A stretch of 62,416 nt of DNA, the filler included, from Circinaria calcarea (taxonomy: Eukaryota): NCBI GenBank assembly GCA_051942165.1. It is 3 parts of 3 records of this genome, joined end to end, with 100 filler letters (N's around TTAATTAATTAA, not from the genome) between each part and the next. Parts side by side here need not be neighbours in the genome. Positions count along the whole stretch, not along the records: positions 1 to 20,766 come from JAVECS010000164.1; 2 more parts are not named here. The stretch is one strand, 5' to 3'. Shown here one piece after another: positions 1 to 59,519 of the stretch. A program made the translations under genes and the position numbers. The stretch's first letter is position 1, and each line of letters begins with the position of its first letter. A model generated the notes under the pieces. The model saw only the letters and a program-made list of their open reading frames with translations. It had not been told where the DNA came from and did not search any database.

Positions 1-3000
1 TCCTCTCCATTGATAGCGTTCGTTTGAAAACAGCTTGGCCGAACTGTTTGAACCGTCCGACTTTCTCGGCAGTCGGATCTTCTCCCACAATGGTAATGGG
101 TTCCTCCTTCATAATCTTGCAGAAGAGGGTCGCGAAGATGAAGTGATTGCCGTTATGGTCGTACAAAGGCAAATGACGATAACCTTGCTGAAGACTCTCA
201 AGCTTCGCAGTAAAGGTTGCCACAGGGCTGCTGCTGGTACTGTTGTTGTAGTTGCGTCCATCTTGAGAATTCCATACCGTCCATCGGACAAACACCAAGC
301 TAGGATACTTGGTCTCGAGTGACAGCTTGAACTTTTCGTTGAAGATCGGGTTGAATCCGTTGCTCTGTACAACGGCGGTGCGACGTCGATGAGGCGAACC
401 TATGCCGGACATTCCATTACGCGCAGAAGCATCTTGTCCTCCTTCTCCCGAAGCAATACCTTTGCCTTTGTCTTCCGCACTAAACATCTCAATCTCAACG
501 TAGGGGTCGACGTATTCTTCGTTCCCCGGACCCCGAGGTCGTGGTATCTGCTGCGCCGATATCATGTCCACCGAGAAGCGAATTAGCCTTCTTGGTGTCT
601 TTGGCGTTTCAGGAGACATCGGATTTGATGGAGTTTCGTGTAGATGGTTTGGCTGTCGAAGTTCCCTTGGTTTGAGCACATATCCGGTGCGATCTGACCC
701 GTTCGCGAACATAGCTTCGTTCATTTGCATTCCCAAGTCGTACGTCTGCCAGTTCAAAGCAACCATCTGTGCTCCTCTTCGCCAGAACACGAGCGGATCC
801 GGGTTCGTAGATTGGATGCGAAAACCAGAAGGGTAAACTCGCATGAGGTATCTCATGTTATGCTTTTCGAGCTGCGCCTTCAGATCCTGATCGCGACATA
901 GTCCGTCGAACTGTCTCTCGGCTATGGAGAAGATGTGATTGTAAGCTTTGCTCTCCTTCTGGGTAAAACCCTCGAACTTTAGGCCACTGGTGTACACTCC
1001 GAGATTTCCAAGCGTCGTGATGATCTTACTGCGGTGCTTCTTTTTCTTTTGCCGAGGCTTCAGCGTCCCACCTTGTGCGGTATCGCTGTCATCTGTCGCG
1101 CTGCTTATACTTGTACCGGTAGCAGAACCTCGGCCGAGGTCCCACGCTGGTGAAGCAAATTCGGGCGGACTCGTAGACGACGGACTGGACAGAAGTGGCG
1201 CATTTGGTATAAATGTGTTGTCGAGTATCTGGGGCCGGGCGAACGGTGAACTTAAGCTTCGCTGTCGACGGCCGATGGGTATGTCAATGCCGGCGTCACG
1301 GGTCGGCGAAACCTCTCCAGCTTTGACCTTGACAAGTATTCGATTTCGGAGGTCTTCTGGGGAGGGGAGGACCAAAACATTGGTCATATACGGTTTCGTA
1401 ACGAGTCGATCTCCAAGCTCTTTGGTCATAATGTCGACCATGACTTGTTGCTGCACGGGATTGCAATGAACCTCCAGTGAAAGGATCAAGGGATACTGCG
1501 ACGACACAAAGGCATATTTCCCAATGACAGAGATGCAATCGGAGAACAACACGCTAGTTGTCATGGTGCGGCCATGAGACACAATCGGCCAGCCGTCCGG
1601 GCCGTCCCAGCAGTCAATCTCAACGCATCGACAAGCCCGTTGTAAGGCTCGTATGTAGGCTTCAGTGCTAGAACTGCCAGCAAACTGCCGCCCGAGAAGG
1701 TAAGTATTGTGTGAGCTTGAGATGAAGTACTCATTGAGTGGCCGGTCCAGCTTCACGTCCGAGGCATTCATTTCATGGATATTGTTGTACGTGGATGTGA
1801 GAAATGCAGCAAACGCCGCAGCACTCATGCGCAAACAGCTTTCGTCAGCTACATCTGATGCCAGGTTCAGTTTCGCTTGAGCCTTGCAGACGAACTTGAC
1901 AAATACTTTCTGCCAGTGAGCGCGGTTCGAGTGAACATCAATACCTTGAATGTCTCTTAAGAAGCTAAGGAAACTTTCCAAGGTCAACCCCTCTGGGCTA
2001 TCTTTGATAAGTGACCTATATACGTCTTTGATATCCGAACGTTCTTTTATCCTCCGTACAAAGTCTTTGAATTCTTGGAAGCTCAAGAACCCGGTCTGGT
2101 TGGTATCAGCCTTTGAGAACTGGGCACGTAGCACGTTTTTAGAGCAATTGATGTGTAAACTTCGGCAAAGCGACTCCACACCTTCAAGATCGAGATTTTC
2201 TGCCTCTTCTAAGCGTGACTCTGCACCGAAAAGCTTGGCCATTTCACGATTCCAATGCCCACGCAGCGTCTTTTCATCTTGGCCAGAACCGGCTAGGCCG
2301 AGCATGAGCTCACGTCTGTATTTCCGGAGATCGTCGAGCGTTGACGTCCATAGTTCAAAGATATGCTGGTCGGGTGCAATCAGATGCATGGTCTTTACGG
2401 CCCTTCCCTTGGCACGATCCTGATCGGCATAAATGATAGTGAACCAACAGCTTTCCGAATCAGCAGATACCTGGAACTCTTCACGATAGTTTCTTGCATC
2501 CCTCTGCAAGCGGACCTGCTGTATGTCATCGATGTAGAATCTCTTTGAAGGGTTGGTAGGATTCCAGGATACTTTAGCCGACTCGGTATCGAGGACAAAT
2601 GTCATGTTTTTCCTCTTTTTCTTCGTGACCTTGGTTAAGACCGTTCCCCGCCGTAACATCGAGGGCACAATGGGTGCAATACCACCTTCGGCCATTGGAG
2701 GGCTCCGCGTTGACGAATGGTTCCTCGAAGTTGTGCCATCACTCGATAGGCCGAGTCCATAAACTGACATGGATTCTTCGGATGTTTCTTCCCCGTCCCC
2801 TTCACGACCCAAGTCCAGAAGTCCCACATCTATATCGGTGCCATTTTTGCTTTCACTCCTGTGACGCATTATCACAGGTCCAGAGCTGTTGTCGCGATTC
2901 GAAACACGATTGACGACATTGGCGGAGGGCTGACGACGATTGATGAGTCTCTGGGTAGCTCTCTGAGACAGCTTTCGAATAATGCCGGGGTTTCTGGCCG

Positions 3001-3328
3001 AGGGGAATGCTTCACTCATGGCACCTTGGTTCGGTGACTTGGGCGTGTAAAAGGAAGACTCTGGCAGCTGGTATGAAGCTGGAGAAAATGACAGAGGAAG
3101 ATTGCGCCCACGCGGCCCTTCGGGAGACGATTGAATGGAGGTATTTGTGGGGCTTGTCGTCAGCGAAGGAGTGTTTGGGCTCGGGGCCGCAGAAGGTACG
3201 CTGGTTATGGGGATCGAAGTGATGATAATCTGCTTTGGAGACATGCGAGCAAACGGCGAGCCAGGCCGTGAGGTGGTCGGGGACTTGCCATTGGAGGCAG
3301 CCGGAGTGGTTGTGATGGACGATGTCAT
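1..3328 (-). CDS. PLC1: Phosphoinositide-specific phospholipase C (X, Y and C2 domains); 3' end lies outside the window
   Basis: Manual translation from ATG at 3328 (MTSSITTTPAAS). In the same frame: X-domain LDRPLNEYFISSSHNTYLLGRQ...CRCVEIDCWDG...HGRTMT (~1560-1756) and Y-domain HNMRYLMRVYPSGFRIQSTNPDPLVFWRRGAQMVALNWQTYDLGMQMN (~720-860). Absent from the ORF track because there is no stop inside the window. Confidence 0.95.
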   Translation of the reverse strand, partial: MTSSITTTPAASNGKSPTTSRPGSPFARMSPKQIIITSIPITSVPSAAPSPNTPSLTTSPTNTSIQSSPEGPRGRNLPLSFSPASYQLPESSFYTPKSPNQGAMSEAFPSARNPGIIRKLSQRATQRLINRRQPSANVVNRVSNRDNSSGPVIMRHRSESKNGTDIDVGLLDLGREGDGEETSEESMSVYGLGLSSDGTTSRNHSSTRSPPMAEGGIAPIVPSMLRRGTVLTKVTKKKRKNMTFVLDTESAKVSWNPTNPSKRFYIDDIQQVRLQRDARNYREEFQVSADSESCWFTIIYADQDRAKGRAVKTMHLIAPDQHIFELWTSTLDDLRKYRRELMLGLAGSGQDEKTLRGHWNREMAKLFGAESRLEEAENLDLEGVESLCRSLHINCSKNVLRAQFSKADTNQTGFLSFQEFKDFVRRIKERSDIKDVYRSLIKDSPEGLTLESFLSFLRDIQGIDVHSNRAHWQKVFVKFVCKAQAKLNLASDVADESCLRMSAAAFAAFLTSTYNNIHEMNASDVKLDRPLNEYFISSSHNTYLLGRQFAGSSSTEAYIRALQRACRCVEIDCWDGPDGWPIVSHGRTMTTSVLFSDCISVIGKYAFVSSQYPLILSLEVHCNPVQQQVMVDIMTKELGDRLVTKPYMTNVLVLPSPEDLRNRILVKVKAGEVSPTRDAGIDIPIGRRQRSLSSPFARPQILDNTFIPNAPLLSSPSSTSPPEFASPAWDLGRGSATGTSISSATDDSDTAQGGTLKPRQKKKKHRSKIITTLGNLGVYTSGLKFEGFTQKESKAYNHIFSIAERQFDGLCRDQDLKAQLEKHNMRYLMRVYPSGFRIQSTNPDPLVFWRRGAQMVALNWQTYDLGMQMNEAMFANGSDRTGYVLKPRELRQPNHLHETPSNPMSPETPKTPRRLIRFSVDMISAQQIPRPRGPGNEEYVDPYVEIEMFSAEDKGKGIASGEGGQDASARNGMSGIGSPHRRRTAVVQSNGFNPIFNEKFKLSLETKYPSLVFVRWTVWNSQDGRNYNNSTSSSPVATFTAKLESLQQGYRHLPLYDHNGNHFIFATLFCKIMKEEPITIVGEDPTAEKVGRFKQFGQAVFKRTLSMER

Positions 3329-6300
3329 GCTGGGCTGCGGAACAGCGAGCGACGGCGCTTTGCGAGCTGTTGGGGAAGGCAAGCAATGCGAACTGCGTCA
3401 CACAGCAGCTGTCTAGCAAGTTTGACGTATTTTGTCCTTGATCATTGTTGCTTCTGGCCCTTTAGCGGGCTGAACTGCTCATCTGCGCAGCGCGAGTCAG
3501 AGCTGCAGTGCTGGGGGGGGTTAAGCTTCGGGCTCGAGGGTTTGCTGAGAACGAAGGCTGGGGCGACCAGTGCTTGACTGTTCGCGATTGAGGATTCGAT
3601 TGCTGATCAATTCATTGTGTGAAATTGGACCAGACGGAATAGGGCGTGGCGGAATGATGGTAAATCCGGGGTAATGTGGAAACACAGATGACGCACAAGC
3701 GAAACTGGACCTGTTTTCGCTTCAGTACGGAATAAGGACAGTGCTTTGTGTCAAACCACGTGTTGACGACCAATGATCATGAAGGGATTGAGAAGGCGAA
3801 TGGCACAAGAAAGGAAGAGAAGGAAAATATGTGCAGTGGGAAGTAATACTAATAAAGTGTCAATTACTTCCCAGCCGGCGGATAGAAAAACCCAAGAGAT
3901 TACAGGAACAGCGACGGTGAGCGACGGCAGCTAATGATAGGGGGAACCAGCAGGCCGGCACCGTCGCAAGACCGGCTCTTTTGTCCAACCTTCAAGGAGA
4001 CGCCGGAGGGGCGTGAGGGGGTACCACTAAGCACTGACCTGGGCACTACCGTATTGAATCCAGGAACGGCCCTCCCGACTCTTGAAGTTGACCACACTAA
4101 GGTAACTTTTCTTTTCACTGGCGGAGCATTGGGATGCAGTCAATGATACGACGTCGGTTCAGCTGCAACGACAAGACAGGAGGGAAGATCGCCGGGAGCA
4201 CACCCTCATATAAAGATATAGATGGGATCGAGGATGCGATAGAATATGGGCAGCCAGCCATCGAGGTCTCGCTCTCGGTCCAAACCGATGGATTCTCAGC
4301 CTTGACGGGCGTCTGCTTGATAAAGGATCATAGGAGTGGCCCTGCTACACACGGCTGTTGGCTCTTTTTTATTCTTAGAGCGCATTCCCGAGGATCCATC
4401 GAGCCATGCAGGAGGATGATGGGCATTTACCGGGGGCTCGTATTCCTCTTCTATTGCCATGGGTAAGGGAGGTGAGGTAATCATGATAATGCTCGGATGG
4501 AGGATGGAGGATGGAGGAGTCCTGCAGGGCATCTATCGTCCACGGACTACTGCGCTCTACTGTAAGCAGATTCATGCCTTGCACTCTGCTCGCTTTATAG
4601 TATTGCTCCAGGCCATGTCACTGGCCAGGACGCGATGCCTCCCTGCCCTGTCCAGCTCTGGCGATCGTTCACCGGAACTTTCACCGCCCTCCACCAGCCA
4701 GGCAGATTGCGGAAGCACGATACATATCGCCCTCTTTTCCCTCGGGAAGCCATACGGGTACTTCCTACATACACGTATCATCTTTACTTAGCGCTGAGGA
4801 AATAGTCCACATGCTGAGGCATCCGAAGCCGGGTATCTATCTGATTGGGAATCATCTGGCGGGATGTTGACAACTGCTATCTTGGCGGTTGCGACGCATG
4901 CAGCTACGCCTCTAGGCAACCGTTTTTATTCGGCTAGTTTGGTCATTGATTATTCTTGAGAATGTTGATGCGCCTATGATCGTGTGTACGGAAACCAAAG
5001 GTAACTACGTATCGATGAAGAAATCTAATACCTAAGTCCCGGAAGCTTGGCTACGGCCAGGCTCTTCGGCAGGGCAACTCCTTGACACCCTTCTCGAAAC
5101 TTATAGAAAAGTTGGCCTCTGGCATGATCTGGGCCAAATCGGACACGACGACCATGACTATGCTGCTATCGCTCGGGGTCGTATCAAGGACTTGTGTGAC
5201 GAGATAACAATCTTGCTTCGATTGGTGATTGAGTCAGCCATGAAACCTCGCCCGGTATGCACATGTGTAGTAGTGCTCACGAGTCTCTCTAGCCTCGATT
5301 CAATTCCTCCCTCTCTCGCAAAGGGAATGCTCACGCAGAATATGATCTGTCGCAAAGACAGGGATGACCGAAAGACGCTACGCCTCCTAGTGACTGTTCG
5401 TTTGGGTAGCCGGTAACTGTCAGTGAGGCATCTTATGGAAATTGCTTGCCTCGCCATCGATGCGAGGTGGAATCCGACAAGACCGTCGCCGGCTGATTAC
5501 ATGGCTGCACCCTTTTCCACCGTCAGGTAGCTTAGCACAATAAGACTGCATTACTTGTGCGGCAGTGCGGCAGAGAAGCGGCCTCCTGCTCGCATCTGTC
5601 ATCCGGATCCTCAGCATCATTCTTTCGTAGCACCAACCAAAGTCGGGGGCCCGCCAGGTGACGTGGCCGAGGCCAAAGCCACCAGGACTTGAAAGGAGAG
5701 GGAAACGGCATGCAAAGTGGTTTGGAAAAATCCCCATTTCTCCGCTACACTCCGATTTGCTACCGTATCACTCACAACCCACTCGGCCTACATCCACGCC
5801 CGGCCACGTTCTGATGTCGGACAGTTTGCATATTGTGTAACCACCCCATTTCGCTGTCCCACTGCCTTCCACTGCCCCAGCAGTTCCCATGCTTGGTGCA
5901 ATCCCGGTTTACCCCACCCCTTCACCATCCGCGTAAGCTTGGATCAACCATGAAGGGGGAGGACAATCAGGGGCTTGCAACTTCAAGATTCTGCGCAATC
6001 CCGTGCAGGATGCAGAGATGACAGGCGTGCGGCATGACCTGCATTGAATGAAATGAATCGCACGCATACCTTTCCACTCTACCGGGCTCACCAACGGAAT
6101 TGGGTAGGGATAGGTAGATTCTTTTCTTTAGACGCCCCGACTCCGCTTCCTGGGAGTTGCTTGGATTTGCGACGCATTCCCGCACCACATCAGGTTATCT
6201 AAGGTACATGTAGCTTGCTGGAAAGGCCTCGGTGACCTTCCGAACGCACAATCGGTCAACACAGCATGCTAGCCTCCTCTTCGACAAAGATATCATCGAT

Positions 6301-7093: not shown

Positions 7094-9001
7094 ATGAACT
7101 GGACTGGAGGCCGCCTGCAGCGTTCGAAACATGCTGCCAACGGACTGTCGGCCAAGCAAAAACAATATTTTGCAGCTGCCCGAGCAAGACTGCAAGGTGG
7201 TAGTAGAGTTCGTTCACCTTCATATGTGACCTTTTTTGAAGGTACGGATCAAGAAATTCGACTCCTGCGTCATGGCCGTCCTACAATCGCCAACGATCGA
7301 GAACATTATGGATCACAAGAAAGAGCGGTAGAGTCCGGCTTCGTGGCGGCACGAGATGATCGGAAAAGATGTCTTCCTTCAGATACCGCTGAACAACGGA
7401 CGTCAAAGCGGCAGAGCAGCAAGCGAGAGAACCCATCCGTCAAAGCCAATCGCAGGAAACCTGAAGCCTGTGACCACGATAGATATCAGCGTTTACCCGA
7501 AACCGAGGACGAGCTTCAGGCTGCGAGACTGGAGATACTGGAGATGATGAAGAGGGACGACTGGCTAAGACCTAAGGTTCCTAAACCTTTGAAGATGACC
7601 TTTCCCTCGTTTGAAGAGAAACAGAAGGTGGGCAGACGGCGGAAGCTCACAAAGGCGGATATAGCACGTCGTAATCAAGTCACACATCAGAGATCTCCTC
7701 CTGTTCAGAAGGAGCGAAGTGGTCTTTCAAGAGTACCGCGGCGCAAGGAACATGGACTAGACCACGATGAGGTGAGCGTTAGGGTTGGATCAGTGATCCA
7801 CGGAAGTCAGAGAACGGATAAGGGTGGTGTACTAGCTCCTGCGAACAGCTACCTACCAACGTCACATGAAATCCTCGACGACTCAACCTATTCTCCAGAA
7901 AAACCACATCTGCCACTCCGTCTCGACACTCAGCCTGTATTCTCCGCTGAAATGCCAATGTATTCAATGCAGTCTTCCAAAGGGCGCCTTACGGACTCGA
8001 TACACTCGCAAGAAATGCCCATAAACTCGACGTACTCAATTCAAGGAAAACTCCTGAGGCCGATGCACTCGGACAATCTCCATGGGGAATCGATGAACTC
8101 GGACGAAATGCTCCTACACTCGATACACTCGGACGAAGCGATCATAGAGTCACTATGTTCGAAGGAGATGCTGCCGAACCAGATATCCGTATCCGATGCA
8201 CCCCGTTCGGCAGAGCACACGTATGAGACCTGCAGTGCCATCCTGAATGCCGGTGAGTGTCATGCGCTGGGCCAAGATTTACTCGCCGAAACTAGCGAAG
8301 AAGTTGTGAGACAGTTCGAGAATCTAGGTACGACGGGATTGGCGTACAAAGCAGTGCAAGCAGACTCTGAGGGTGGCGGCGAGGAGATTGCTGACCACCT
8401 TCACCCTATGCCCAATGCCACCAATACAAACGACGAGTTGCAAGTGCCGAAGGATGAGAAACCTGACGACGAAGCAGTATGGTTTAAATGGGTCTTTGGC
8501 TATGATAAGACCAAGGACGAAGAAAACGATGTGCCAGAACTTTCTCCTCACGATCTTTTGGTAGAAACGGCCGCCGACACGCCCAAAGATGAGAAGGAAG
8601 ACGATGTATCCTCCATCATCGCGGAAGCCTCCCGAACCCCTCCAGAAGCCAGCACCCCTACTGTCTCCAAGAACAGCTCCATGTCCAACCAGGTAGATAC
8701 GAGCCCAGATCCCCTGTCCATTGACTCTACTTCCTCGTGCAGGAATCTCCCAAGTCCGCATCCCGGTCGCGGTCGTCTGCAACCCCGGGTCGTGTTCAAG
8801 AAACCAGCCCTCTTTGGCGGACAGGGGCCTCGGACAGCTACTGTACATATTGGCAAAAACGTTAGGAGTCGCCCCGTCGAGGATCCGAATGGGTCTGGCA
8901 GGCCAAAGTCAAGGCCAAGGGCGAAGAGGAGGAGCCGGTTGCAGACGGTGGGGCTGCAATGGAGTAGTGACGGCGAGGAGAAAGAGGAGATTGAGGATTA
9001 A
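7094..9001 (+). CDS. 635-aa largely disordered protein with an N-terminal MNWTGGR...KQKQYF motif; putative HEIP1/C12orf40(REDIC1)-like meiotic crossover factor
   Basis: Long intronless ORF. The N-terminus MNWTGGRLQRSKHAANGLSAKQKQYFAAARARL resembles, from memory, vertebrate C12orf40 MNWVGGSR...RKQKEYF. The CDS is well supported; the family call is inferred. Confidence 0.7.
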   Translation: MNWTGGRLQRSKHAANGLSAKQKQYFAAARARLQGGSRVRSPSYVTFFEGTDQEIRLLRHGRPTIANDREHYGSQERAVESGFVAARDDRKRCLPSDTAEQRTSKRQSSKRENPSVKANRRKPEACDHDRYQRLPETEDELQAARLEILEMMKRDDWLRPKVPKPLKMTFPSFEEKQKVGRRRKLTKADIARRNQVTHQRSPPVQKERSGLSRVPRRKEHGLDHDEVSVRVGSVIHGSQRTDKGGVLAPANSYLPTSHEILDDSTYSPEKPHLPLRLDTQPVFSAEMPMYSMQSSKGRLTDSIHSQEMPINSTYSIQGKLLRPMHSDNLHGESMNSDEMLLHSIHSDEAIIESLCSKEMLPNQISVSDAPRSAEHTYETCSAILNAGECHALGQDLLAETSEEVVRQFENLGTTGLAYKAVQADSEGGGEEIADHLHPMPNATNTNDELQVPKDEKPDDEAVWFKWVFGYDKTKDEENDVPELSPHDLLVETAADTPKDEKEDDVSSIIAEASRTPPEASTPTVSKNSSMSNQVDTSPDPLSIDSTSSCRNLPSPHPGRGRLQPRVVFKKPALFGGQGPRTATVHIGKNVRSRPVEDPNGSGRPKSRPRAKRRSRLQTVGLQWSSDGEEKEEIED

Positions 9002-9675: not shown

Positions 9676-10581
9676 TCACAAATAGTCCTTCTTCCTACTC
9701 GTCCTTGTATACTGATTCAAGTGCCACTCCACATCCCCTTCTTTCCTTTCCACCGTGCCTCCCCTAATTTCAAAGAGCCGCATCGTCATCCGCGGGCCCA
9801 CCTCTGCCAACTCCACGCTTTGATAGCCCGTCTTTACGAAGACGTGATGTCGTACTTCGATACTATCGCCGATGTTCTTGAACGTCACGACTCGGTTTCC
9901 TAGTTTCTGCGAAGGAGTGGAAGCGGTGACGGCTTCCCGCGGAGGGAAAAGATGTTTCAGGATCTTAACCACGCGAGCCCCCAGCGGCGTGGTGAAATTG
10001 TCAAAGATAAGGTGGGGGTAGGATTCGGAGACTGTGCCGAGGGTAGAATTGGGGATGTCATGGCGGAGAACGACGTTGTGGAGAGAGAAACTGGCAGTGG
10101 GCCCGTGGGGGAAATGGGAGACTGTCAGGGCGGTGGGGGTCCCTCTATGCTCGTGTAGGAGGATGAGATCGGAAAGACCGGAGGAATTGGCGCTGGAGAC
10201 GAGATTAGGGAGGATGAGGTTGCCGCGGTTGAGCCGGATAGATGTGGGAAGGAGAAGGCGGATTTCTTTGGCGAAAGCGGAGAGGCGGGTGGAAGGGGAG
10301 CGGGAGGTTGTGATGAGAACACGGGGGTCGGTGATACCGCTGAGGTGGGCGTATTCGTCGTCGAGATCGAGCTCCTCTTGGGCGGAGAGATTCGGCTGTG
10401 ACTCGTCGTACTTGTAGTCTGCGCGGAGGGATTTGTCGTTGGCGATGGAGGGGTCGAGGGGCTTGCCCGTTGCGAGGGAAGCTTTAAGTTTGGCGCGCTT
10501 CGAGGCGATTTCAGCGTCGCGCAGAGTAAGAGCACGGCGGTAGAGGTAGTCACGGCGTTGGCGGGCTTGTCGGCGGATCAT
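9676..10581 (-). CDS. IMP4: U3 snoRNP protein Imp4 (Brix domain)
   Basis: MIRRQARQRRDYLYRR start, ITTSRSPS, HEHRG, HFPHGPT and ELAEVGPR motifs; intronless. Confidence 0.97.
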   Translation of the reverse strand: MIRRQARQRRDYLYRRALTLRDAEIASKRAKLKASLATGKPLDPSIANDKSLRADYKYDESQPNLSAQEELDLDDEYAHLSGITDPRVLITTSRSPSTRLSAFAKEIRLLLPTSIRLNRGNLILPNLVSSANSSGLSDLILLHEHRGTPTALTVSHFPHGPTASFSLHNVVLRHDIPNSTLGTVSESYPHLIFDNFTTPLGARVVKILKHLFPPREAVTASTPSQKLGNRVVTFKNIGDSIEVRHHVFVKTGYQSVELAEVGPRMTMRLFEIRGGTVERKEGDVEWHLNQYTRTSRKKDYL

Positions 10582-10939: not shown

Positions 10940-13900
10940 ATGGAAGGCGCTTTTACACATCTGGGCAATCACCTAATCTCGGATTCGGCGTCCACGATCA
11001 ATGCCGGGGATGATCTATCTACCATAGATCCCGACGAGAGCATTTTGGACAGGGAATATGGAAAGGGCAACCTGACTGGAGGTCCCAGGAGGAGGAGACA
11101 CGATGACGAAGATGAAGGGACGGAGGCCTTTGACGACGATGATATGGAGAGTATGGTTAGCATGCCCGTGGACGGGGTGAACGGCAAGCCAGGAGCACGA
11201 GTTGAAGAGGAGAAAGAGTTGCCGCCACATGCCTGCGCGTGAGTCTCTACTGGCAACATGAGCCCCAGCCTAGGAGATTTGCGTGTCATTTTCAAAAGGC
11301 TAACCACTTCCACTATGTAGATATTGTGGGATTCATAACCCTAGCAGCGTGGTCCGCTGTTTGGCCTGTAGCAAATGGTTCTGTAGCGCTCGTGGGAACA
11401 CATCTTCCTCCCATATTATCAATCATTTAGTTCGCGCGCGGCACAAAGAGGTACAGCTTCACCCGGGTTCTTCATTGGGAGAGACGGTGTTGGAATGTTA
11501 CAATTGTGGCACGAAAAACGTGTTCCTCTTGGGCTTCATCCCTGCCAAGTCGGATACAGTGGTGGTTCTCCTTTGCCGTCAGCCATGTGCTGCGATGCCT
11601 TCATCAAAGGATATGAATTGGGATGTCTCACGCTGGCAGCCTTTGATCGAAGACCGGTCATTCCTACCTTGGCTGGTTTCGGCACCATCGGATCAGGAGC
11701 AACTACGCGCACGGCATCTCAGCCCCCAGATGATTGCAAAATTGGAGGAGATGTGGAAAGATAACTCAGCGGCTACAATCGCAGATCTTGAAAAAGGAGC
11801 GGGTGTCGATGACGAGCCCGCTCCGGTGCTTTTGCGCTACGATGATGCCTATCAATACCAAAATGTATTTGGTCCCTTGGTAAAGATCGAGGCGGACTAT
11901 GACAGAAAACTCAAGGAGTCCCAATCACAAGACGGTCTCGTTGTACGATGGGATTTTGGACTAAACAACAAGCACTTGGCAAGCTTCGTTCTACCAAAGC
12001 TTGAGTTAGGTGATGTCAAGCTCGCTGTTGGGGATGAGATGCGTATCAAATACACTGGAGAGCTGCGACCTCAATGGGAAGGGGTTGGATACGTTATCAA
12101 GATTCCCAATAACCAGTCAGACGAAGTGACCATAGAGCTTCGCGCCAAGGGAGACCACAAGTCGGTTCCAACAGAATGCACACACAATTTCAGCGCTGAC
12201 TACGTCTGGAAGGCCACGTCCTTTGATCGTATGCAGCTAGCTATGAAGACGTTTGCAGTGGATGAGATGAGCGTTTCGGGCTACATTTTCCATCGGCTTC
12301 TCGGGCACGAGGTTGCGGCAGCAGCAATGAAGACGCAGATGCCTAAGAAATACAGCGTGCCGGGCTTACCGGAGCTGAACGGAAGTCAGATCAACGCGGT
12401 CAAGAGCGTACTCCAAAAGCCATTGAGTTTAATTCAAGGGCCACCTGGCACGGGGAAAACGGTAACCTCAGCCACGATTATCTATCACCTCGCAAAAATC
12501 AATGGAGGTCAAGTGCTTGTTTGCGCTCCGTCGAACGTTGCCGTTGATCAACTTTGCGAACGAATCCACAAGACGGGTCTAAAGACAGTTCGTGTCACCG
12601 CGAAGTCTCGTGAGGACGTGGAATCCCCCGTCGGTTTTCTTTCATTGCATGAGCAAGTTCGCATGAATGACAGTAACATCGAACTTGTTAAACTCAATCA
12701 GTTAAAGAGTGAACTTGGAGAGCTGTCCAGCCAAGACGAGAAGAAGTTCAAGCAGCTAAACCGCAATGCCGAGCGCGAGATTCTGATGAATGCAGACGTA
12801 ATCTGCTGTACCTGCGTTGGGGCGGGCGACCCCCGAATCGGCAAGTTCAAATTTCGGACGGTCCTCATTGACGAGTCTACTCAGTCTGCTGAACCCGAGT
12901 GTATGATCCCACTTGTGCTTGGCTGTAAGCAGGTTGTCCTTGTGGGTGACCACCAGCAACTGGGCCCCGTCATCATGAACAAGAAGGCTGCCAAAGCTGG
13001 TCTAAACCAATCCCTGTTCGAACGGCTTGTGATCCTGGGTTGTGCGCCGATCCGATTAAACGTTCAATATCGTATGCATCCATGTTTATCTGAATTCCCG
13101 TCCAACATGTTCTACGAGGGATCTCTGCAGAACGGTGTGACTATGCAACAGCGCATTCGTCGAGATGTGGACTTCCCCTGGCCTGTTGTCGACTCGCCGA
13201 TGATGTTCTGGTCAAATCTGGGCAACGAGGAAATCTCTGCGTCTGGTACATCTTACCTTAATCGCACCGAGGCAACCAATGTTGAAAAGATCATCACACG
13301 CTTCTTCAAAGCGGGTGTGCAGCCGAGTGACATTGGGATCATTACACCCTACGAGGGTCAGAGGAGTTATGTCGTCAGCTCAATGCAGACCAATGGGACA
13401 TTTAAGAAGGAGAACTACAAGGAAATCGAGGTTGCATCCGTTGATGCTTTCCAAGGACGAGAAAAAGATTTTATTGTCTTGTCCTGTGTACGGTCCAACG
13501 ATCATCAGGGTATTGGGTTCTTAAGTGATCCTCGCCGTCTGAACGTTGCCCTCACTCGTGCCAAGTATGGCCTGGTCATTCTGGGTAATCCCAAAGTACT
13601 CTCTAAACACCCCCTGTGGCACTACCTACTTCTTCACTTCAAGGAGCGGAATTGCCTGGTCGAAGGACCCCTTTCCAACTTGCAAATATCTTTACTCCAA
13701 TTCAGTCGACCCAAGCAGTCATATCGCGGGCCTCAACGCTATCAGATGGCATACCAACATGCGTCAAACATGGCAGGTGGTATGACGAATGGGCGAAATG
13801 GCCATCGTCAAGAGTACAACGACTCTGGATCTATTGTTGGCTATATTCCCGACGATGTGTCGTCTGTGCACTCGTCCGCCATCGGTGGCGTCGGGGTACC

Positions 13901-14243
13901 TTCAACCTACCCGCAAATGTTCTCAGGCTTTCAAGATACCTGGCCCACACTCAACGGTGGGCGACGCACAAATGGCGCCAAGAGCCGTGCTGGTACCGAG
14001 AGCGTTGCGGGCGAGTCGGTAGCAGCTACAGAATCTGATATCAACGGGGCAAGTACCGTTGATGGCAAAGGAGGGGTTAGCCTTGCTGGGCTTAGCATCA
14101 ACGACGCCAAACAGACAAGTCTCAGTCAGTCTGATCGGTTGAAACGATACGTTGAGTCCGGTGGAAACTCATCGAGAGACGACGATGCTCGAAGTGTATC
14201 CACTGCGTTTGCCAGCCAAGTTGGTCTTGGTAATTACGACTGA
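10940..14243 (+). CDS. UPF1: Nonsense-mediated decay SF1 RNA helicase Upf1/Nam7; one intron 11239-11320
   Basis: Splicing GTGAGT...GCTAAC...TAG gives [20 protein letters not shown] (CH zinc domain). Helicase motifs [38 protein letters not shown]. Confidence 0.98.
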
Positions 14244-38646: not shown

Positions 38647-41376
38647 TCAATCCTCCCTACGCCTCCTTTTCGGAGGACGCGGTAGACCCGGGTACATCCC
38701 ACCGTATTCGTCGTATTCGTCGTCGGACACCGGTCTCTTCTGCCTCGAAGGAGGAGGCAACGCAGGGCTATCATTGGTGTTGGTAGCTGAACTCAACTGC
38801 CTCCGCTGAGGAGGCACCTGAAGAGCATCGGTGTTATTGGTAGGTCGTGGCGACCACGGACTCTCATAAGGTGTCCTTCGTAGAGGAGAAGTAAATCCAG
38901 ACCTCCTAGTGTTGTTGGCAGTTGGTGACGTTGCCGGCGCCTCAAAAGCCATCGTCGTCCTCGCCAAAGGAGTCGCTCCTTGAGCCTCCTGATGCCTGAA
39001 AGTATTCTGAGTGTAGGAAGGGGCAGAACTGCTTCCCATGTTAAGACCGCCGATATCAAGATCGCTGCTTTCTGGTTTGATGGGTCGCTCTTGTTCCATC
39101 TCCCTCCTCTTGGCTTCGTTTGCTTCCTTGAGTAGTTTTCTCTTCTTGCTTCGGTCGTGTTCAATGCCCGTGGTCATCTTCTCTGGGTTTGGATTGCGGC
39201 GCTCGTCAATGCCGGTTTTCTCTCGTCCAGATCTATTCCACCGACTCTTGATAGAGCCCCACGTTCTCGGTGGACGCGAGGGATCATGCTCTGCCAGACG
39301 CCTCGCGACTTCTTCACATCTCTTTCTCTCGCTATGATTGACCTTTTTTTCTGCTACAACCTCCCCCATGAATCGACCTAGTAGAGTATCATCCTCTTCG
39401 GTCCATGGATTATCTTGTTTCTTCTTCTTATTTTCAGGTTCTTCGTTCGCAGTCTTGGTCTTGATCTTGGCCAAATTCTTGGGCTTCCTCGGTGCAGGTG
39501 CCGGGGGATATGTGTCTGGATTGGAGCCGGATGTAGCAGGGTTGAAATAAGATGCAGCAGGAGCTGGATTGGAGCCAGATGCGGCAGGGTTGAAGTAAGA
39601 TGTAGCAGGATTAGGGTTGAAGTAAGATGCAGCAGGAGCAGGATTGGAGCGAGATGCGACAGGGTTGAAGTAGGATGTAGCAGGATTAGGGTTGAAGTAA
39701 GATGCAGCAGGAGCTGGATTGGAGCGAGATGCGGCAGGGTTGAAGTAGGATGTAGCAGGATTAGGGTTGAAGTAAGATACAGCAGGAGCAGGATCGGAGT
39801 AAGATGTAGCAGGGTCTGAGCGAGGTGCAGCAGAATTGAAGTAAGATGCAGCAGGGTCAGAGAGAGATACAATAGGATCAGAGCGAGGTGCAGCATCACT
39901 GGAGCGAGATGCATTAAGAAGATTGGAGCGATATTCAGCAAGTCTCGCGCGAGCTGCGATAGGGTCGCGGGAACGTACAACACCTTGGTAATTCGCAGGA
40001 TCAAAAGCATATGGGTTCGGACGTGGAGGCAAACGTCCATCTGTGTGTATAGGTGCATTGTCAGAATCCAAGGCTGTAGTATTGGGCACTGCCCTGGCCG
40101 CTGAAGGTACCATCTTTCCGGCTTTGCGGCGGGGGATGCGTCGCATCTTGCGTGCCTTTGGCTTGAAGTCGTTGTTATCGTCATAGCTGTCGTCGTCGTC
40201 AGAATTGTCTGTTTCGTCCGAGCTCTCTATATGCTCATTTGAGCCCTTTTGGCCTTTCTTTGGCGTCTTATCCTCGTCAGAGCTCTCCCCATTATTGTTG
40301 AAGTTGGTCCCTTTGTTAGGTTTCTCCTCTTCCTTCTCCGAGTTGTTCTCCTGCTCATCAAAGCTCTCTTGGTTGTCTGCGATCGTCTCATTGTAGGAGT
40401 TATCTCGGTCGTTCAAGTCCGTGTCGTTGTTAGAGTTCTGCTGGTCTTTCGAGTTTGACATATTGGTGAAGTGCTCGTGGAAGGTCGAGGTTGTGTCGTA
40501 CAAGATAGGATTGTTTGAGATTGGCATGTTCAACGTCGACTTGTTCAAGTTTGTGTTTCTGACGGAGTTGTCGTGGTCATTCGGGATCATGTCATCATCA
40601 CTAATCTCTTGGTAGATAGGGTTCACAACTGGACGCCGTATAACCGGAGGCCACACAACTGAAAGCCGTACAACTAGAGACGGTACAGCTGGAGACGGTA
40701 CAGTTGGAGACGGTACAGCTGGAGACGGTACAACTGGACGCCACACAACTGGAAGCCGTACAATTAGAGACCGTGCAACTGGAGGCTGTGAAACTGAGGG
40801 TGGTGAAAATGGAGGCGGTGAATATCCAGGCGGCAGACCCGGGAAAGTAGAGTCATCATCTCGTGGAGATGAAATTTCAGGAGTAGGAGGCCAATCGCTG
40901 TCTGTAACTGTCACGACATCCCCATCATCGTCGCTCCACTCTTCGGGTCCAAACACCGTATGCCTCAAAGGTCCGCCGACAGCTCGTTGATTAGGCACAC
41001 ATTGACAGTAAGGAATTATAAAGGGACAGGGGTGTCTAAGTGAGTAGCTCAAAGTCGCTTCCAACTACACCGTACAGTCAGTATCCTTGTTTTCTTGCTT
41101 TTTGCTTTAAAAAGGGCAGAACCGGTTAGATAATCTTACTTCCATAATGCGGCGTCTGATCCTTTGACGCCTGATCGCCTCAGCTTGCTCCGTGGCAATT
41201 TCTTCTGGCCCTGGCTTTGGAAGCCGGTGGGACCTCTCCATTGGACCTATTCCGAGAACGTCTATAAACACGTCCACCATTTCAATCCATCTCGGCCGTG
41301 GCGTGACTGTCGGTCCTGACGTGACTATCGGCAGTGACCTGGCTGTCGGCATTGGTATTGCTGTTGGCAGTGACAT
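38647..41376 (-). CDS. Repeat-rich ~880-aa protein with a Myb/SANT-like domain; intron 41065-41139
   Basis: Exon 1 (79 codons, MSLPTAIPM...RRIME) splices GTAAGA...CTGAC...TAG in phase 0 onto ORF 38647-41064. Contains NPWTEEDDTLL...EVARRL...RTWGSIKSRWNRSGREKTGIDERR and a basic NLS-like end PPKRRRRED. Confidence 0.75.
39515..39915. repeat. Coding minisatellite with a 75-bp unit (SNPAPAASYFNPNPATSYFNPxASR), about three full copies plus partial ones
   Basis: GGATTGGAGC-type anchor recurs at 39518, 39566, 39641, 39716 and 39791 (spacings 48, 75, 75, 75). Confidence 0.92.
40620..40790. repeat. Coding 15-bp tandem repeat (GGAGACGGTACAGCT-like; VPSPA) within degenerate related units
   Basis: gagacggtacagct ggagacggtacagtt ggagacggtacagct ggagacggtacaact. 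Confidence 0.88.
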
Positions 41377-53242: not shown

Positions 53243-56200
53243 ATGCTCACGCCACGAAGGGCCAATTCCTCGGTCGATTTGACTGGTCCCAGAGACCTGT
53301 CGAGCTGTGTTTATGTTGCACTACCCATTCAAGATTACAGAAAACCCCAGTTGCAGGGATTGCGAAGCGAAGCCGGTGCCGTTCCTCCGGTGGTGGACAC
53401 CAAACCGGCCCTACCTTCTCTGGCATCTTCATCACCCACATCCACTCCACCGATTGTCAACTTGAGTTCCATCACATATCCAGTCCTAGAGCCATTAACT
53501 CACATTCAGAATCTTCTCCTTCATGGTGTAGGTGGGAAGCAGCAGTTGCACAAAGCAAATGTAAGTATGCTGCGGATGAGTTCACTGGAGCTGGACACAA
53601 CCCCATTAAGCACCCGGGGTGAGGCTGCAAAACTGACGCTAGCAGGTAAAGTCGTCCAAAGTGAGGAGTGAACACCAAGTGAATGGCCATGTGAACGGGG
53701 CAACTCCGAGTATGGCCGCCAAAGAGCAGTCCTTCTTGCTTCAAGCACGCGGTAAAGATGCACATGACTTGCAGCTGCATCAGACCACTTATGGGCAGCC
53801 TAATTACCCACTATCAAGTCCAAACAGCCACAGCATCAACCACACCGGGAATCCCAAAGGAAAGCAAGCATCGCCCCAGCGTGGCCAGCAAGTGGAGCTG
53901 CAACACAACCGACCCCACCATAGCTTCAGACGAACTCCAGTGGATGGCGACTCCATGATGATACAAGGTCCGCCATCATCTGCTGGGAGACAGAATAATA
54001 TCTTCTCGCGTCCATTACCTCAAAACTCCAATGGGACGACGCACCGTTCACTGGCTGGTAGGATGGGCGGACGTCAAGATAACTGGGCTGAGTGGCCTGA
54101 GCTGGGCGTCAGAATATCTGAACTACCTAAAGATGTCACCACGAGGGATATCTGGGCAGCACTGAAAGGGGAAGGTCAGATCGTTACCATTGAGATCTTC
54201 GAGGACCAAAACGGCAAACGGAATGGCAGAGCACGAGTTAGATTCAGGTAAGGCGCAGACAGCCTTGATGAGTGGGTTAGACTGACTACAGGGGCAGTCC
54301 TCCACCAGCAAAGGCGTTTTGGGAGGAACCTACCTATGCCATGGTAGTCGGTGGCAAGCCCATGCCTATCCAGGTCAAATTGGAGCTTGACACTTCAAAG
54401 CGGCTCTTCCTTACCTCGAGCCCTGTCAATCCAAAAGTCAAGTATCCCGAAATTATGGTGAGTCGCTGATATTGGCTGCTCCTGCGACCTCAAACTTAGA
54501 TTGACCCTTAATTTAGACCATGACGGCTGACATCCTTGACTTTGGCTTCATGTACGAACCAAGTGCGATGATGGGAATGCATCGGGTACATCCAAGACCA
54601 GGATCCGGAATTCAGTTTCGTCTCAACTTGCACCGTCGAGAGATTGATATCTTCTTCCAGCTAGTAATCGAGGATCCACGTTGGGAGAAATTCAGACGAG
54701 CCCAAAGAGACAGCACTAAAATAGTGATACAGCCAGCAAGCCTCGGAAAGTCGGATCGCGTTGAGTCGTTGCGCTTTTGTATTCCCTTCGCTCAACCTCT
54801 TGATGTTCACGAAATTGGAACTGCGGCACAAGTCATACTACTCATCTCGATGGAGACTCCCCCAAATTTCTATAGGAAATTCGATGAAGGGGCCACCCAC
54901 GAACCCAGCGCCAATTACTGGAACCATAGGGATGCATGGTTTCGCCAGACCGATATCCTATACAGTCGTAAAACACTGAAGGAAGCCTTCCTCAGTCTCA
55001 AGAAGTCAAAACCGATCATTGATATTGGTAAGTTAGGGTAGACGATGCTTCAAACCACTCTGACTAATATGGTACCCCTCAGGCCGGTGGATGACTTATC
55101 GCTTTGTTTTCAACATGCACAAGAATGATCGAGTAATATACGAGACCATGCGTAGCGCCTTGAAGGACTTCAATGTCGAGATCAGACCGCTGGCGGACTT
55201 CAAACTGCTGACGCATCGTGAGCCAGCCGTGTGGGAATACATTGATAAGCCCATCATGACAAAAAGGAGGAAGACATTCAATGCATTGGACGAGCTAATT
55301 GAGGATGTAGTACCATCTCTTTCCTTCTCAGTACGATATCAGCTGGAAGTTTGCATTTCCCAAGGTTATCTCAACGAGCATAACCTGACGCAAGAATTCG
55401 TTGATAAGCTCATAGGCATGAAGGATACCGAAGCTCAGGATCTCCTTGAGTACGTTGCGCACCAGAAGCGACGCTTCTACCGGCCAATGGAGATATTCGA
55501 CATTAAGATTATCAAAGGCTCTGCATCAAGACTGAAGATTCCCCACTACTGTGCCTACATTCGGTCAGCCACAGTGACACCAACTACAATCTATTACAAC
55601 ACTCCTACCGTGGACACTTCCAATCGGATTATTCGCCAATATGCCGAATATGCTGATCGGTTCTTGCGTGTTCGTTTCACTGATGAGAAGTTTCAGGTAT
55701 GAGAGTAGGCCTTACCCGTGCCGTGTGACTGTGCTGATTTGTTCAAGGGGAATATCTTTGCGAATGATGGCGAGACTATGAACGAGGTTTTCACTCGCAT
55801 CAAGCGTGCTATGAATAATGGAATCACTATTGGCGACCGTCATTATGAATTTCTCGCCTTCGGGAACTCGCAATTCCGTGACCATGGAGCCTACTTTTTC
55901 GCTCCGGTCGAACACCTTCGTCCGGAGGATATACGAAGATGGATGGGTGATTTCAAAGATATCAAGATTGTGGCAAAGCATGCTGCTCGCCTTGGTCAAT
56001 GCTTCTCGACGACACGTGCCATAAACGGGACCAAAGTAACTGTGAAGCCTACGAATGACATCAAGCGTGGGAAATACACCTTCACCGACGGTGTAGGTAA
56101 GATATCCAAGTTTCTAGCGCAACTGGCTGCCTCAGAATTGGGTCTTGCGATGCCATCTGGGGAGCCTCCGTCGGTCTATCAATTTCGTCTGGGCGGCTGT

Positions 56201-59200
56201 AAGGGCATTCTTACGCTCTGTCCGGACGTGAAGATGCGGGAACTTCATATCCGTCAAAGCCAGGAGAAGTTTGGAGCCTGCCATGAAGGCTTGGAAATCG
56301 TGCGCTGGTCACAATTCGCTTCAGCATATCTAAACCGACAGATTATCATCGTACTCTCGGCGCTCGGAGTACCAGATCATGTCTTTGTGGATAAACTGAA
56401 GCAACAGCTATCAAACCTTGAACAGGCCATGATAGATGAGACTATGTCGTTGAGCTTGCTGCAAAGGGAAATTGATCCGAATCAGATGACTCTTGCAATC
56501 GCGGGTATGGTACTGGACGGCTTTCAGAAGGTACGAGAACCGTTCCTGGTCTCTCTGCTGCAGCTTTGGAGGGCATGGTCAATAAAGTATCTCAAGGAGA
56601 AGGCTAAGATCCTAGTACACGAAGGGGCATTACTCCTTGGCTGCGTTGATGAAACAGGAACACTTAAAGGCCATTTTAACAATCAACAGCCTGGCCCTGC
56701 TGCTACGCTTGAAAAGAGACTAGCTGCTCTACCAGAGATCTTTGTACAGTTATCAAAGGGAGAAAATGACAAGCCTCAGGTCATCGAAGGCCCAATTACT
56801 CTGGCTCGAAACCCTTCACTTCATCCAGGTGACATTCGCATTGTTCGGGGCGTCAATGTACCTGCGCTTCACCATCTCAAGGACGTTGTTGTTCTACCAC
56901 AAACTGGCGATCGAGATGTCTCCAACATGTGCTCAGGCGGGGACCTTGATGGAGACGACTACATGGTCATATGGGATAAGAACCTTCTCCCTGTGGAGTG
57001 GAATCATCCACCGATGAATTATACCCCTCCCGCCCCTGTGCGAGTGGAGCGGGAAGTTAGTACCAATGACATTACTTCATTCTTTGTTACATACATGAAA
57101 AACGATACTTTGCCAAGGATAGCTCATGCACATCTGGCCACTGCGGACTACATGGCGGACGGCGTGAAAAACGAGAAGTGTAAACTTTTATATTTTCTCT
57201 GCTGGACTGAACTCAGCTAATGTCCTTACAGGTCTGAGGCTTGCTGATCTTCACTCCGTAGCCGTGGACTACGTCAAAACCGGCGTCCCAGCTGTAATGT
57301 CCTCTGACCTACGCCCGAAGAAGTGGCCGCATTTCATGGAAAAGGTCCATAAGCCAAAAGAGCAGATTTATATCTCACAAAAGGTGCTGGGCCAATTGTA
57401 TGACCAAGTCGAGCGGGTTGACTTCGTACCCGATTATGATGCCCCGTTCGATAAGCGTATTCTCACCGCCTATGACATGACAGAGCAAATAATGTCTGAC
57501 GCAGCGGAAATTAAAGAGCAGTATGATGCAGCTATGTATCGTATAATGGCCCAACATGACATACGTACTGAATTCGAGGTGTGGTCGACTTTTGTCATGC
57601 ACCATGCCAACCAAAGCAAAGATTTCAAATTTCACGAAGAAATGGGTGAGATCTCAGTTGCATTGAAAGACCGCTTCCGAGCTGCTTGTTATGATAAAGC
57701 TGGAGGTAAGGATTTCGACAAGATTGGTCCTTTCGTCGCCGCTATGTACACTGTGACCCATCGTGAAATGGTAAAAGCGCTTGCAGAATGTCGTGAGCTC
57801 AAGGTCGTTGATGGAAGGGATACGTATGCTAGGCAGAGGTCTGCGAAGACAATGCCTTTGATGAGCTTTCCCTGGCTCTTTCATAACCACCTAGGAAAAA
57901 TTGCTAATGGCGTACTACGCCCATCAGCTGCAGATAAAGCTGAGGCTTCTGATTTCATTCGGAGTGGTGGGTCGAGGAAGTTCGTTCCAAAGAAAAGCCG
58001 TGCTGGGGTGAATCCTTCGAACGAGGATACGCTCGAGACGGCCCAAGGTACGATACATCGTGGAGAGCTGCTTGAGCTATTTTCCCACGAGGATGACAAG
58101 ATAGCATCCATGAGTGATAACCCTGGCAGTTCGCACCCAGAAAGTTCCGAACAGGATTCGCCTATTTCACCGGAAGAAGATGCATACGCAGGCCTAGATG
58201 ACTTCGAGAAATTATCGGCTTATGGCACAAAACCGGATCTTCTCGACGATCTCATTGTTCCTTCCACTGATATGAAACCTGTTCTTGATACCGGGGCCAA
58301 GACCGCTAAAGCCGTGCCGAGTAAGGGGCTGGTCGACTTGTGTGCTGTTGGAGAAGCTGATACTCCTGATCAAAATACTTCCTCAGTCTCTGCCACAGAT
58401 ACAGATACAGATGCGTTTGCAGGCCTCGAACAATCCGATATTTGGCCTACTTTGACACCTACCAAGTCCAGCCGTCTCACCGGTGCCGAGGTAGAGGGAG
58501 ATCTCTTTGGTCTATCCAACGTCAGTAGCACAGTGCAGGATAAACAAGAATCCCCATCAAGCACCGTGATTGATGGGAACTTGGAAGATGAGGATAATGT
58601 AACAAACCGTGTAATTAGCCGGATACCAGCTCTGGAGGAACACACGTGTGCAGGACCTTCAAAGTCTTTAACGATGTCTCCACCTAGTAAAGGGTCTCCC
58701 GCTCCCGATTGTCATCCTCATTCACAAGTAGGCAGCAAAACCGGCCTTATATTCAGAGCCCCGGAGACCAAGCCTATGATGATGGTACCTAAATTAGGCA
58801 CTTTGGTTGACTTTGGGCCTGACGACAAAGAGACCCGCGCTGACGAGAAAGTTGTTGGATCGAGCAAAGACCAGGTTCCAGTAGCGAAGTCAGGTGCAGA
58901 CCCATTTTCCGGGCTGCATGGCTTGGAGAGCATATCTATACTTCACAAACCGCCCGCATCCTCTGACCGCCCAGTTGTCTCCCAAGCGGAAAGTATGCTC
59001 GACCTAGGAGGTAAAACGGACGAAAGCTCCGTCGTCGGCAATGCTCTAGGTGCTACAGGAGTTGGAACCTTGATTGATTTTGATTTCGACGAAGATGAGC
59101 CAACCGATCAAGCCTTCAGTACTATGTCAACTACGCCGAAACTAGCATCTTTTGCTCCTGAGTATGACCTGCTCATGGGTATAGACGAATTTGATGTGCT

Positions 59201-59519
59201 ATCACCTGGGCAGGAAATGGACTCTAGCTCAGCCACGACTTTAGGAGTCAAGATTGGGGGTGGTTTCGCGAAAGAGGAAGATCTTATGCAAGGAGATGCA
59301 TTTCCTCCGCATAGTCTCAACGGGATTGCAGATGGGGAAACCATGCACTGGACCCGAGGACCCAAGGTTAGCCAACCAGCAAACGGTGGTAGTAAGGATG
59401 ATTCGGAGGACAAGTATGAGATTGGTAGTGACGGTAATGATGGAGAGGAAGAGGTCATCCTCCCCATCAGCTTCGAACCGTCGCCGTTTGAACGTCTGGA
59501 AGCCTTACTAAATAGCTGA
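53243..59519 (+). CDS. sad-1: Cellular RNA-dependent RNA polymerase, SAD-1 (meiotic silencing) type; introns 53561-53645, 54248-54297, 54458-54516, 55028-55082, 55697-55747, 57180-57231; start uncertain
   Basis: N-terminal RRM-like WPELGVRISELP...ARVRFS|PPPAKAFW; DRFLRVRFTDE, YEFLAFGNSQFRDHGAYF, AARLGQCFSTT, FTDGVGKIS, QFRLGGCKG, LARNPSLHPGDIR, catalytic CSGGDLDGDDY, LHSVAVDYVKTG. The RdRP call is firm; the SAD-1 clade is inferred from the N-terminal architecture. Confidence 0.9.

Follow-up and report, generated by a model that had tools for sequence, protein, structure and literature searches.

The open reading frame at 7094..9001 (+ strand) of the Circinaria calcarea window (the whole stretch of DNA analysed, 62,416 nucleotides) encodes a 635-residue protein. 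Judged by alignment and phylogeny, it is a member of a family in Pezizomycotina, and the branching of this family mirrors the fungal classes. The family is very probably homologous to HEIP1/REDIC1, which plants and mammals require for crossovers in meiosis, and we give a probability of roughly 70% to the reading that the fungal protein acts as a disordered scaffold for class-I crossover proteins, with the crossover role conserved. Positions 1-20,766 of the window are one contig of a 31.5-Mb assembly of 5512 contigs. The frame runs from an ATG at 7094 to a stop at 9001 (635 codons), with the same limits and N-terminal start as in the original prediction. Homologs align end to end, and since their alignments cover Met1 to the acidic C-terminal end, the start codon choice and the single-exon structure appear plausible.

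The extreme N-terminus (aa 1-35, 7094..7198, + strand) carries the bipartite HEIP1/REDIC1 signature, in which a W-G-G turn is followed by a basic helix (aa 18-34) bearing Q-K-x-Y-F. It has a net charge of +7 with zero acidic residues, and 33/35 positions are identical to both nearest relatives. In an alignment of 98 family members (see below), M1, W3, G5, G6 and F26 are invariant in 98/98 rows, an invariance that is overstated because the rows were partly found via this motif; this bias weighs less on the motifs further downstream. Taken alone, the first half of the motif is found at seven places in the 31.5-Mb assembly, which is chance level (six for a reversed-pattern control), and the second half (Q-[KR]-x-aromatic-F) is present at only one of these, the gene at 7094-9001. 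The W-x-G-G...Q-K-x-Y-F signature proposed for the protein start is thus present, with both halves together at this one of the seven places. Among 313 fungal N-termini having both halves, 256 keep a W-to-Q spacing of 19-20.

Searching with residues 1-260 returned 27 proteins, and those bearing names belong to lichen-forming Lecanoromycetes; residues 1-55 (phmmer, 1.84 billion representatives) gave 148 unnamed matches at E <= 0.001. Among 166 proteins then checked, 163 have the fungal-type start; the other three are a decayed copy, a truncated member and an unrelated repeat protein. The protein had been described as orphan-looking, which holds for domain libraries (no Pfam family matches the 635 residues) but not for sequence searches. 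An N-terminal profile gave 182 matches, and every named one among the 120 listed is an ascomycete; a metagenome scan matched 63 stretches, 40 of them confirmed, giving 38 loci; and further searches named members in Leotiomycetes, Dothideomycetes, Eurotiomycetes and Candelariomycetes. The 98-row alignment consists of full-length members chosen from these searches. The ESM Atlas yielded one unnamed Ascomycota cluster at 0.76, which is a lead only, and nothing related among its named clusters. PDB sequence searches with three family alignments found nothing below E 0.7.

In a tree built from residues 1-330 of 46 members, 43 of them named and 3 unnamed, the Dothideomycetes (97/99), Leotiomycetes (96/94) and Candelariomycetes (100/99) each form a group, while the Eurotiomycetes are unsupported (56/2) and the Lecanoromycetes need three changes. 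The Circinaria protein groups with Varicellaria, Lambiella and Xylographa (98/93). Class labels on this tree are those we presume for the species named, except for Varicellaria and Xylographa, which were confirmed as Ostropomycetidae. The class-level grouping is as expected for vertical descent.

One intact copy of the gene and two broken partial copies were found in this fragmented assembly. The broken copies (C595:1270-2200 and C3867:1-650; loci L029 and L013) contain stops and frameshifts and correspond to about aa 120-510. They share 91% identity with each other across 633 bases and 69-80% with the gene, and neither contig stretch showed the N-terminal motif. Such debris is what one would point to in arguing that 7094-9001 is itself an artefact or a dead frame, a reading that is hardly credible and is refuted by the conservation pattern: three diverged relatives keep the frame open (635, 648 and 606 codons), identity to the second-nearest relative is 33/35 in the motif and 54/65 in module 2 (described below) vs 66/205 in the middle, and 98 full-length homologs align. 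Repeat-induced point mutation (RIP) as the cause of the broken copies is unsupported (81 transitions and 65 transversions vs the gene; TpA/ApT 0.75-0.77). A dispersed repeat of about 290 bases (L029:2600-2900) follows the broken copies; of 40 candidates scored, about 35 other contigs carry it at 74-88% identity. An 83-residue protein (P0028) from another ENA contig, in a related sequence set, is a decayed N-terminus of the same gene, so dead duplicates recur in the lineage.

Downstream of the signature we describe a fungal architecture that is new, consisting of a second basic helical module and four further motifs. Module 2 (aa 138-198, 7505..7687, + strand) is basic and reads helix, D-W, P-L..F, G-R-R-R-K, helix. 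R182 is invariant in the 98 rows, and L149, D156, W157, P165, G180 and R183 are kept in at least 90% of them. The helix-D-W pattern occurs in 83/98 rows (shuffled mean 2.6) and G-R-R-R in 87/98 (shuffled mean 6.5). Neither a Pfam nor a PDB sequence match was found for this module. Motif 3 (S-V/I-R-V/I-G; aa 226-241, 7769..7816, +) is present in 75/98 rows (shuffled mean 4.2). A degenerate 10-residue repeat follows at aa 283-362 (7940..8179, +), identified by self-similarity peaks at lags 10, 20 and 21 (p about 0.0005) and not detected by TRF; it resembles a multiplied version of the family motif S-D/E-x-M-L-L, and its copy number varies among the three closest proteins. The family motif M-L-[LF]-D was counted in 77/98 rows (shuffled mean 0.5). 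The Circinaria protein misses the strict helix-D-W and M-L-L-D patterns (3-residue insertion; variant) yet aligns there. Motif 5 (W-x-x-W/F-V-F-G; aa 459-475, 8468..8518, +) is an aromatic, predicted helix (pLDDT 76-90) inside an acidic region and occurs in 69/98 rows (shuffled mean 0.6). Motif 6 (V-V-F-x-K-P-x-x-F; aa 565-590, 8786..8863, +; 35/98 rows, shuffled mean 0.6) precedes a basic tail and the acidic end. No counterpart of module 2 or motifs 3-6 was detected outside fungi.

The protein is predicted to be largely disordered outside short helices. With the 98-row alignment, AlphaFold2 gave pLDDT below 50 at 364/635 residues and a pTM of 0.27, with helices only at aa 18-34, 138-153, 173-176, 187-198, 459-468 and 472-475; S, P, Q, E, K, R, G, D and T make up 63% of the residues. 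The original prediction of a low-complexity, probably disordered protein therefore agrees with the model as regards disorder, while "low-complexity" overlooked five further conserved motifs. Module 2 reaches pLDDT 78-94 within the full-length model and, modelled alone, gives three separate helices with no compact fold (pTM 0.26), the behaviour one would predict if folding depends on a binding partner. Conservation and positive charge are both concentrated in the first 245 residues (net charge +7, +7 and +9 in three segments), after which comes an acidic disordered body with short motifs. Pfam searches of 23 aligned family members gave only four single-member chance matches, Foldseek found no fold match at E <= 0.001, and the best Z in a VIA fold search was 2.5.

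Fungal HHblits matches to HEIP1/REDIC1 were already reported by Singh et al. (2023), and the part of their Dataset S3 used here includes Mollisia A0A194XEJ0 and a Paracoccidioides lutzii protein. The former is a family member in our fungal searches (UniRef100_A0A194XEJ0) and matches the Circinaria protein by BLASTP at 1e-15, in an alignment of 260 columns that takes in both motif 1 and module 2; in Dataset S3 it stands against human C12orf40 at rank 137 (probability 97.4, E 5.7e-6). By this route the proposed membership of a filamentous-ascomycete branch of HEIP1/REDIC1 is supported. PAAG_12105 of P. lutzii Pb01 likewise matches the Circinaria protein (BLASTP 1e-9), and the P. lutzii Pb01 protein of Dataset S3, which we equate with it by the same strain and a near-identical start, not by accession, matches Arabidopsis HEIP1 at E 7.2e-7. 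In the rows covered, fungal proteins interleave with plant and animal ones from rank 105, and unrelated proteins begin near rank 294. Other rows are those for Didymella (E 2.3e-7), Rhizophagus (2.6e-7), Sclerotinia (7.1e-6), Spizellomyces (9e-6), Sordaria (0.00089 and 0.11), Neurospora (0.0042 and 0.58) and Lasallia, the closest lichen row (only 0.029 and 0.47). All E-values of Dataset S3 stem from a search iterated seven times with HHblits, and fungal rows taken into the profile may have inflated them. The opening six letters of the Circinaria protein occur 468 times in Dataset S3, repeated alignment lines included.

By eye, the Circinaria N-terminus is identical to the human one at 12/31 positions with one 2-residue gap and to that of Arabidopsis at 9/33 with no gap and the same W-to-Q spacing of 19; the human query line used for this comparison, like that for plant HEIP1, agrees with the C12orf40 and HEIP1 motifs given in the original prediction. 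Plant or animal members were absent among the matches listed for residues 1-55, the N-terminal profile (120 of 182) and the named ESM Atlas clusters; because our own searches reached none, the cross-kingdom step rests on Dataset S3 and about 33 residues. The Circinaria protein is not above the gathering cut-off of PF15089 (Redic1-like), which probably omits the N-terminus and covers the vertebrate C-terminal part, since it has 425 positions vs a 652-residue protein. A proline-led hydrophobic patch at aa 41-48 (7214..7237, +), found in 151/318 distinct fungal N-termini (shuffled mean 43), sits roughly where plants and animals have their S-L-D-hydrophobic-L patch, for which the Circinaria protein has no match. 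An L-D-type patch occurs in 13/318 (shuffled mean 2.4), several of them from one clade, and most fungal rows of Dataset S3 examined also align without the S-L-D-hydrophobic-L patch.

The short common stretch, the lack of a direct plant or animal match among those listed and the unmatched PF15089 could also describe an unrelated fungal disordered protein that shares, by convergence, a similar N-terminal docking motif. We regard this as quite improbable: the motif is bipartite with its spacing kept, lies at residue 1 in all three kingdoms and occurs once in the assembly, glomeromycete, chytrid and invertebrate rows in the part of Dataset S3 covered bridge the kingdoms, and PF15089 would not be expected to match if it omits the N-terminus.

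Taking the fungal family as homologous, its members can be set beside those of other lineages. Plant HEIP1 (rice; Arabidopsis At2g30480, F4INT5; PMC10265981) has a W-x-G-G...Q-K-Q-Y-F N-terminus with the same spacing as the fungal protein, and both have a short structured start, a disordered remainder and one copy per genome. Unlike plant HEIP1, the Circinaria protein lacks the S-L-D-I-L patch, shows no further plant motifs by eye, is shorter, and carries the fungal module 2 and motifs 3-6. With human and mouse C12orf40/REDIC1/HEIP1, as described in the parts consulted of PMC10447524 and 10.1101/2025.08.25.672081, it shares M-N-W-x-G-G...K-Q-K-x-Y-F, a similar length (635 vs 652 residues in human), predicted N-terminal helices followed by disorder, and a basic N-terminal third; the spacer is two residues longer in this comparison and the Circinaria protein is without a PF15089 match. 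Binding to D-loops and to HEI10, MSH5 and TEX11 is a feature of the mammalian protein, whereas the Circinaria protein is known here from sequence. Within Dataset S3, Mollisia A0A194XEJ0 belongs to the same family, as does Lasallia A0A5M8PFJ3, judged by first 35 residues near-identical to two members that we found. This dataset aligns only the first 30-45 residues, and the parts examined do not describe the downstream motifs. Its Sordaria (F7W729) and Neurospora rows show a W-x-E-G variant; neither genus was among the named matches listed in our searches, so that Dataset S3 provides their only tie to the Circinaria protein. C. elegans COSA-2 and mouse PRR19 (PMC13192651, in the part seen) organise crossover sites and are also mostly disordered, with short helices, a comparison of working only: their partner is the COSA-1/CNTD1 cyclin and no sequence relation to the fungal protein is claimed.

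We found genes for the expected partners in the same assembly. HEI10 lies on contig C693 (L100:780-1807, minus strand) in at least four exons, and its exon 2 has human CCNB1IP1 (9ges) as its only match (E 1.8e-15). It was found by a short degenerate pattern (one exact match among 24 places; a first pattern had found nothing), the contig being absent among the 42 candidates of a six-frame PF14634 search because an intron splits the RING. ZIP4/SPO22 (E 2.8e-45) and a SPO11-type domain are present, together with nine MutS_V matches. Of these, contigs C1677 and C4108 hold what we take to be the MSH4-like and MSH5-like genes, from the P-loop motifs as we know them; the reference sequences listed were only MutS, MSH2, MSH3 and MSH6, none confirming MSH4 or MSH5. 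Near-identical gene stretches (an MSH1-like gene, an MSH6-like gene and a RING gene) occur on pairs of contigs (C312/C1264, C433/C387 and C1669/C2221; loci L021/L022, L025/L027 and L004/L084), which suggests duplicated haplotigs or a mixed-genotype assembly. Co-presence of the partners is weak, permissive evidence, because most sexual ascomycetes have these genes; according to the part seen of PMC11515122, lichen fungi generally keep their meiosis genes.

Patterns of absence were also considered. Coprinopsis, Cryptococcus and Ustilago use the ZMM pathway. Nothing in the part of Dataset S3 covered carries the name of Saccharomyces, pombe, Yarrowia, Drosophila or Caenorhabditis, which we count in favour of the class-I reading. 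These three ZMM genera are not named there either, so its absence patterns are weak. A search with a Paecilomyces query named only two Aspergillus among 97 rows. Aspergillus ruber may, we assume, be the 'Eurotium herbariorum' of a report of dead Msh4/Msh5, and if so, the HEIP1-like gene outlasts MutS-gamma. That report (10.1101/750497, seen in part) describes A. nidulans and A. rugulosus as having dead Msh4, Msh5 and Zip3 genes, and T. stipitatus and 'E. herbariorum' as having dead Msh4/Msh5. The rows of Dataset S3 covered include an A. ruber match and name none of nidulans, stipitatus, versicolor, sydowii and marneffei; with the ZMM-retaining versicolor and sydowii missing as well, the absence of A. 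nidulans is uninformative.

The open frame, family, motif, disorder prediction, single intact copy and partner genes come from this analysis, and the plant/animal profile link and everything on function from published work, of which we draw on parts. Mouse HEIP1 residues 1-226 bind HEI10 residues 81-276, the non-RING part, its loss lowers the loading of MSH4, TEX11 and HEI10, and it has an early, recombination-independent axis phase (10.1101/2025.08.25.672081). REDIC1 residues 1-228 bind D-loops and a 78-residue mutant form barely does so, consistent with a contribution from residues past the motif; the protein co-precipitates MSH5 and TEX11 (PMC10447524). Rice HEIP1 binds HEI10 without its RING (PMC10769960). 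For fungi, we infer meiotic expression, the partners and the crossover role, and likewise a scaffold from the N-terminal conservation and charge, the acidic body with its motifs and the module 2 helices. The Pezizomycotina HEIP1/REDIC1 member would be a nuclear, mostly disordered scaffold of meiotic prophase. Residues 1-245, which comprise the N-terminal motif and the basic module 2, may become folded when they bind and so anchor the protein at recombination sites via HEI10 and branched DNA, a part played in mouse by the first 226-228 residues. Short motifs of the long disordered remainder would gather HEI10, MutS-gamma (MSH4-MSH5) and ZIP4, and the gathered proteins would stabilise intermediates, some of which mature into interference-sensitive (class I) crossovers. 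When aa 1-245 were modelled together with a pair of HEI10 exon 2 chains (lacking the coiled-coil exons), the score was 0.00, with the alignment not used and an uncertain partner fold, which speaks neither for nor against binding. More tentatively, and at somewhat less than even odds, the N-terminal motif may be an ancient HEI10-pathway docking peptide shared from plants to fungi, to which filamentous ascomycetes added a basic helical module of their own (aa 138-241) for binding branched DNA or HEI10.

A true homolog could also have shifted its role in fungi and serve as an axis, synaptonemal-complex, HEI10-turnover or general recombination/repair factor that class-I crossovers do not require. 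Five conserved motifs are fungal-only, the S-L-D-hydrophobic-L patch is unmatched, the mouse protein has its early axis phase, the second half of the motif is degenerate in some Aspergillus rows in the part of Dataset S3 covered, and the gene may be retained where Msh4/Msh5 are dead, should the presumed identity of A. ruber hold. We nevertheless consider such a shift unlikely, as the published parts report a crossover role conserved among rice, Arabidopsis and mouse despite equally divergent bodies, and HEI10, ZIP4 and MSH4/MSH5-like partners are present in the same genome. The preferred reading remains a conserved scaffold for class-I crossover proteins.

Neighbours of the gene are phospholipase C (2-3397, - strand), Brix/IMP4 (9676-10581, -) and UPF1 (about 10940-14243, +). 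These neighbours recur in 3/38 loci (3/14 long ones), in changed order (L065 with phospholipase C and UPF1, L071 and L072), and two of the three encode the same protein. Elsewhere in the window, two open frames at 55709-59519 (+) read by eye like a fungal RNA-dependent RNA polymerase gene, and an 805-codon open frame at 38647-41064 (-) shows by eye a proline/alanine-rich tandem repeat and a Myb-like stretch.

The gene is a new member of a fungal branch that was already in the 2023 dataset and is neither described nor tested in the literature searched; the two broken partial copies elsewhere in the genome are also new. Surprise is limited because fungal homologs had been flagged in 2023. The search found no functional study of a fungal member, as the original prediction had held, and no paper by locus tag, with subscription journals, the 2018 rice paper and bioRxiv supplements outside its scope. 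In the parts seen, PMC9957857 still called HEIP1 plant-specific and PMC13192651 names rice, Arabidopsis and mice only. The conserved fungal motifs point to residues worth mutating, where the very divergent plant and animal bodies offer none. If the docking-peptide reading is true, one would expect decay of the gene in A. nidulans alongside Msh4/Msh5/Zip3, and the Sordaria ortholog would be an overlooked pro-crossover factor in a main crossover-interference model. If the role is conserved, the family would add to the fungal meiosis toolkit a factor that Pfam misses, and workers on Sordaria and Neurospora would gain a gene with which to probe the seeding and selection of HEI10 foci.
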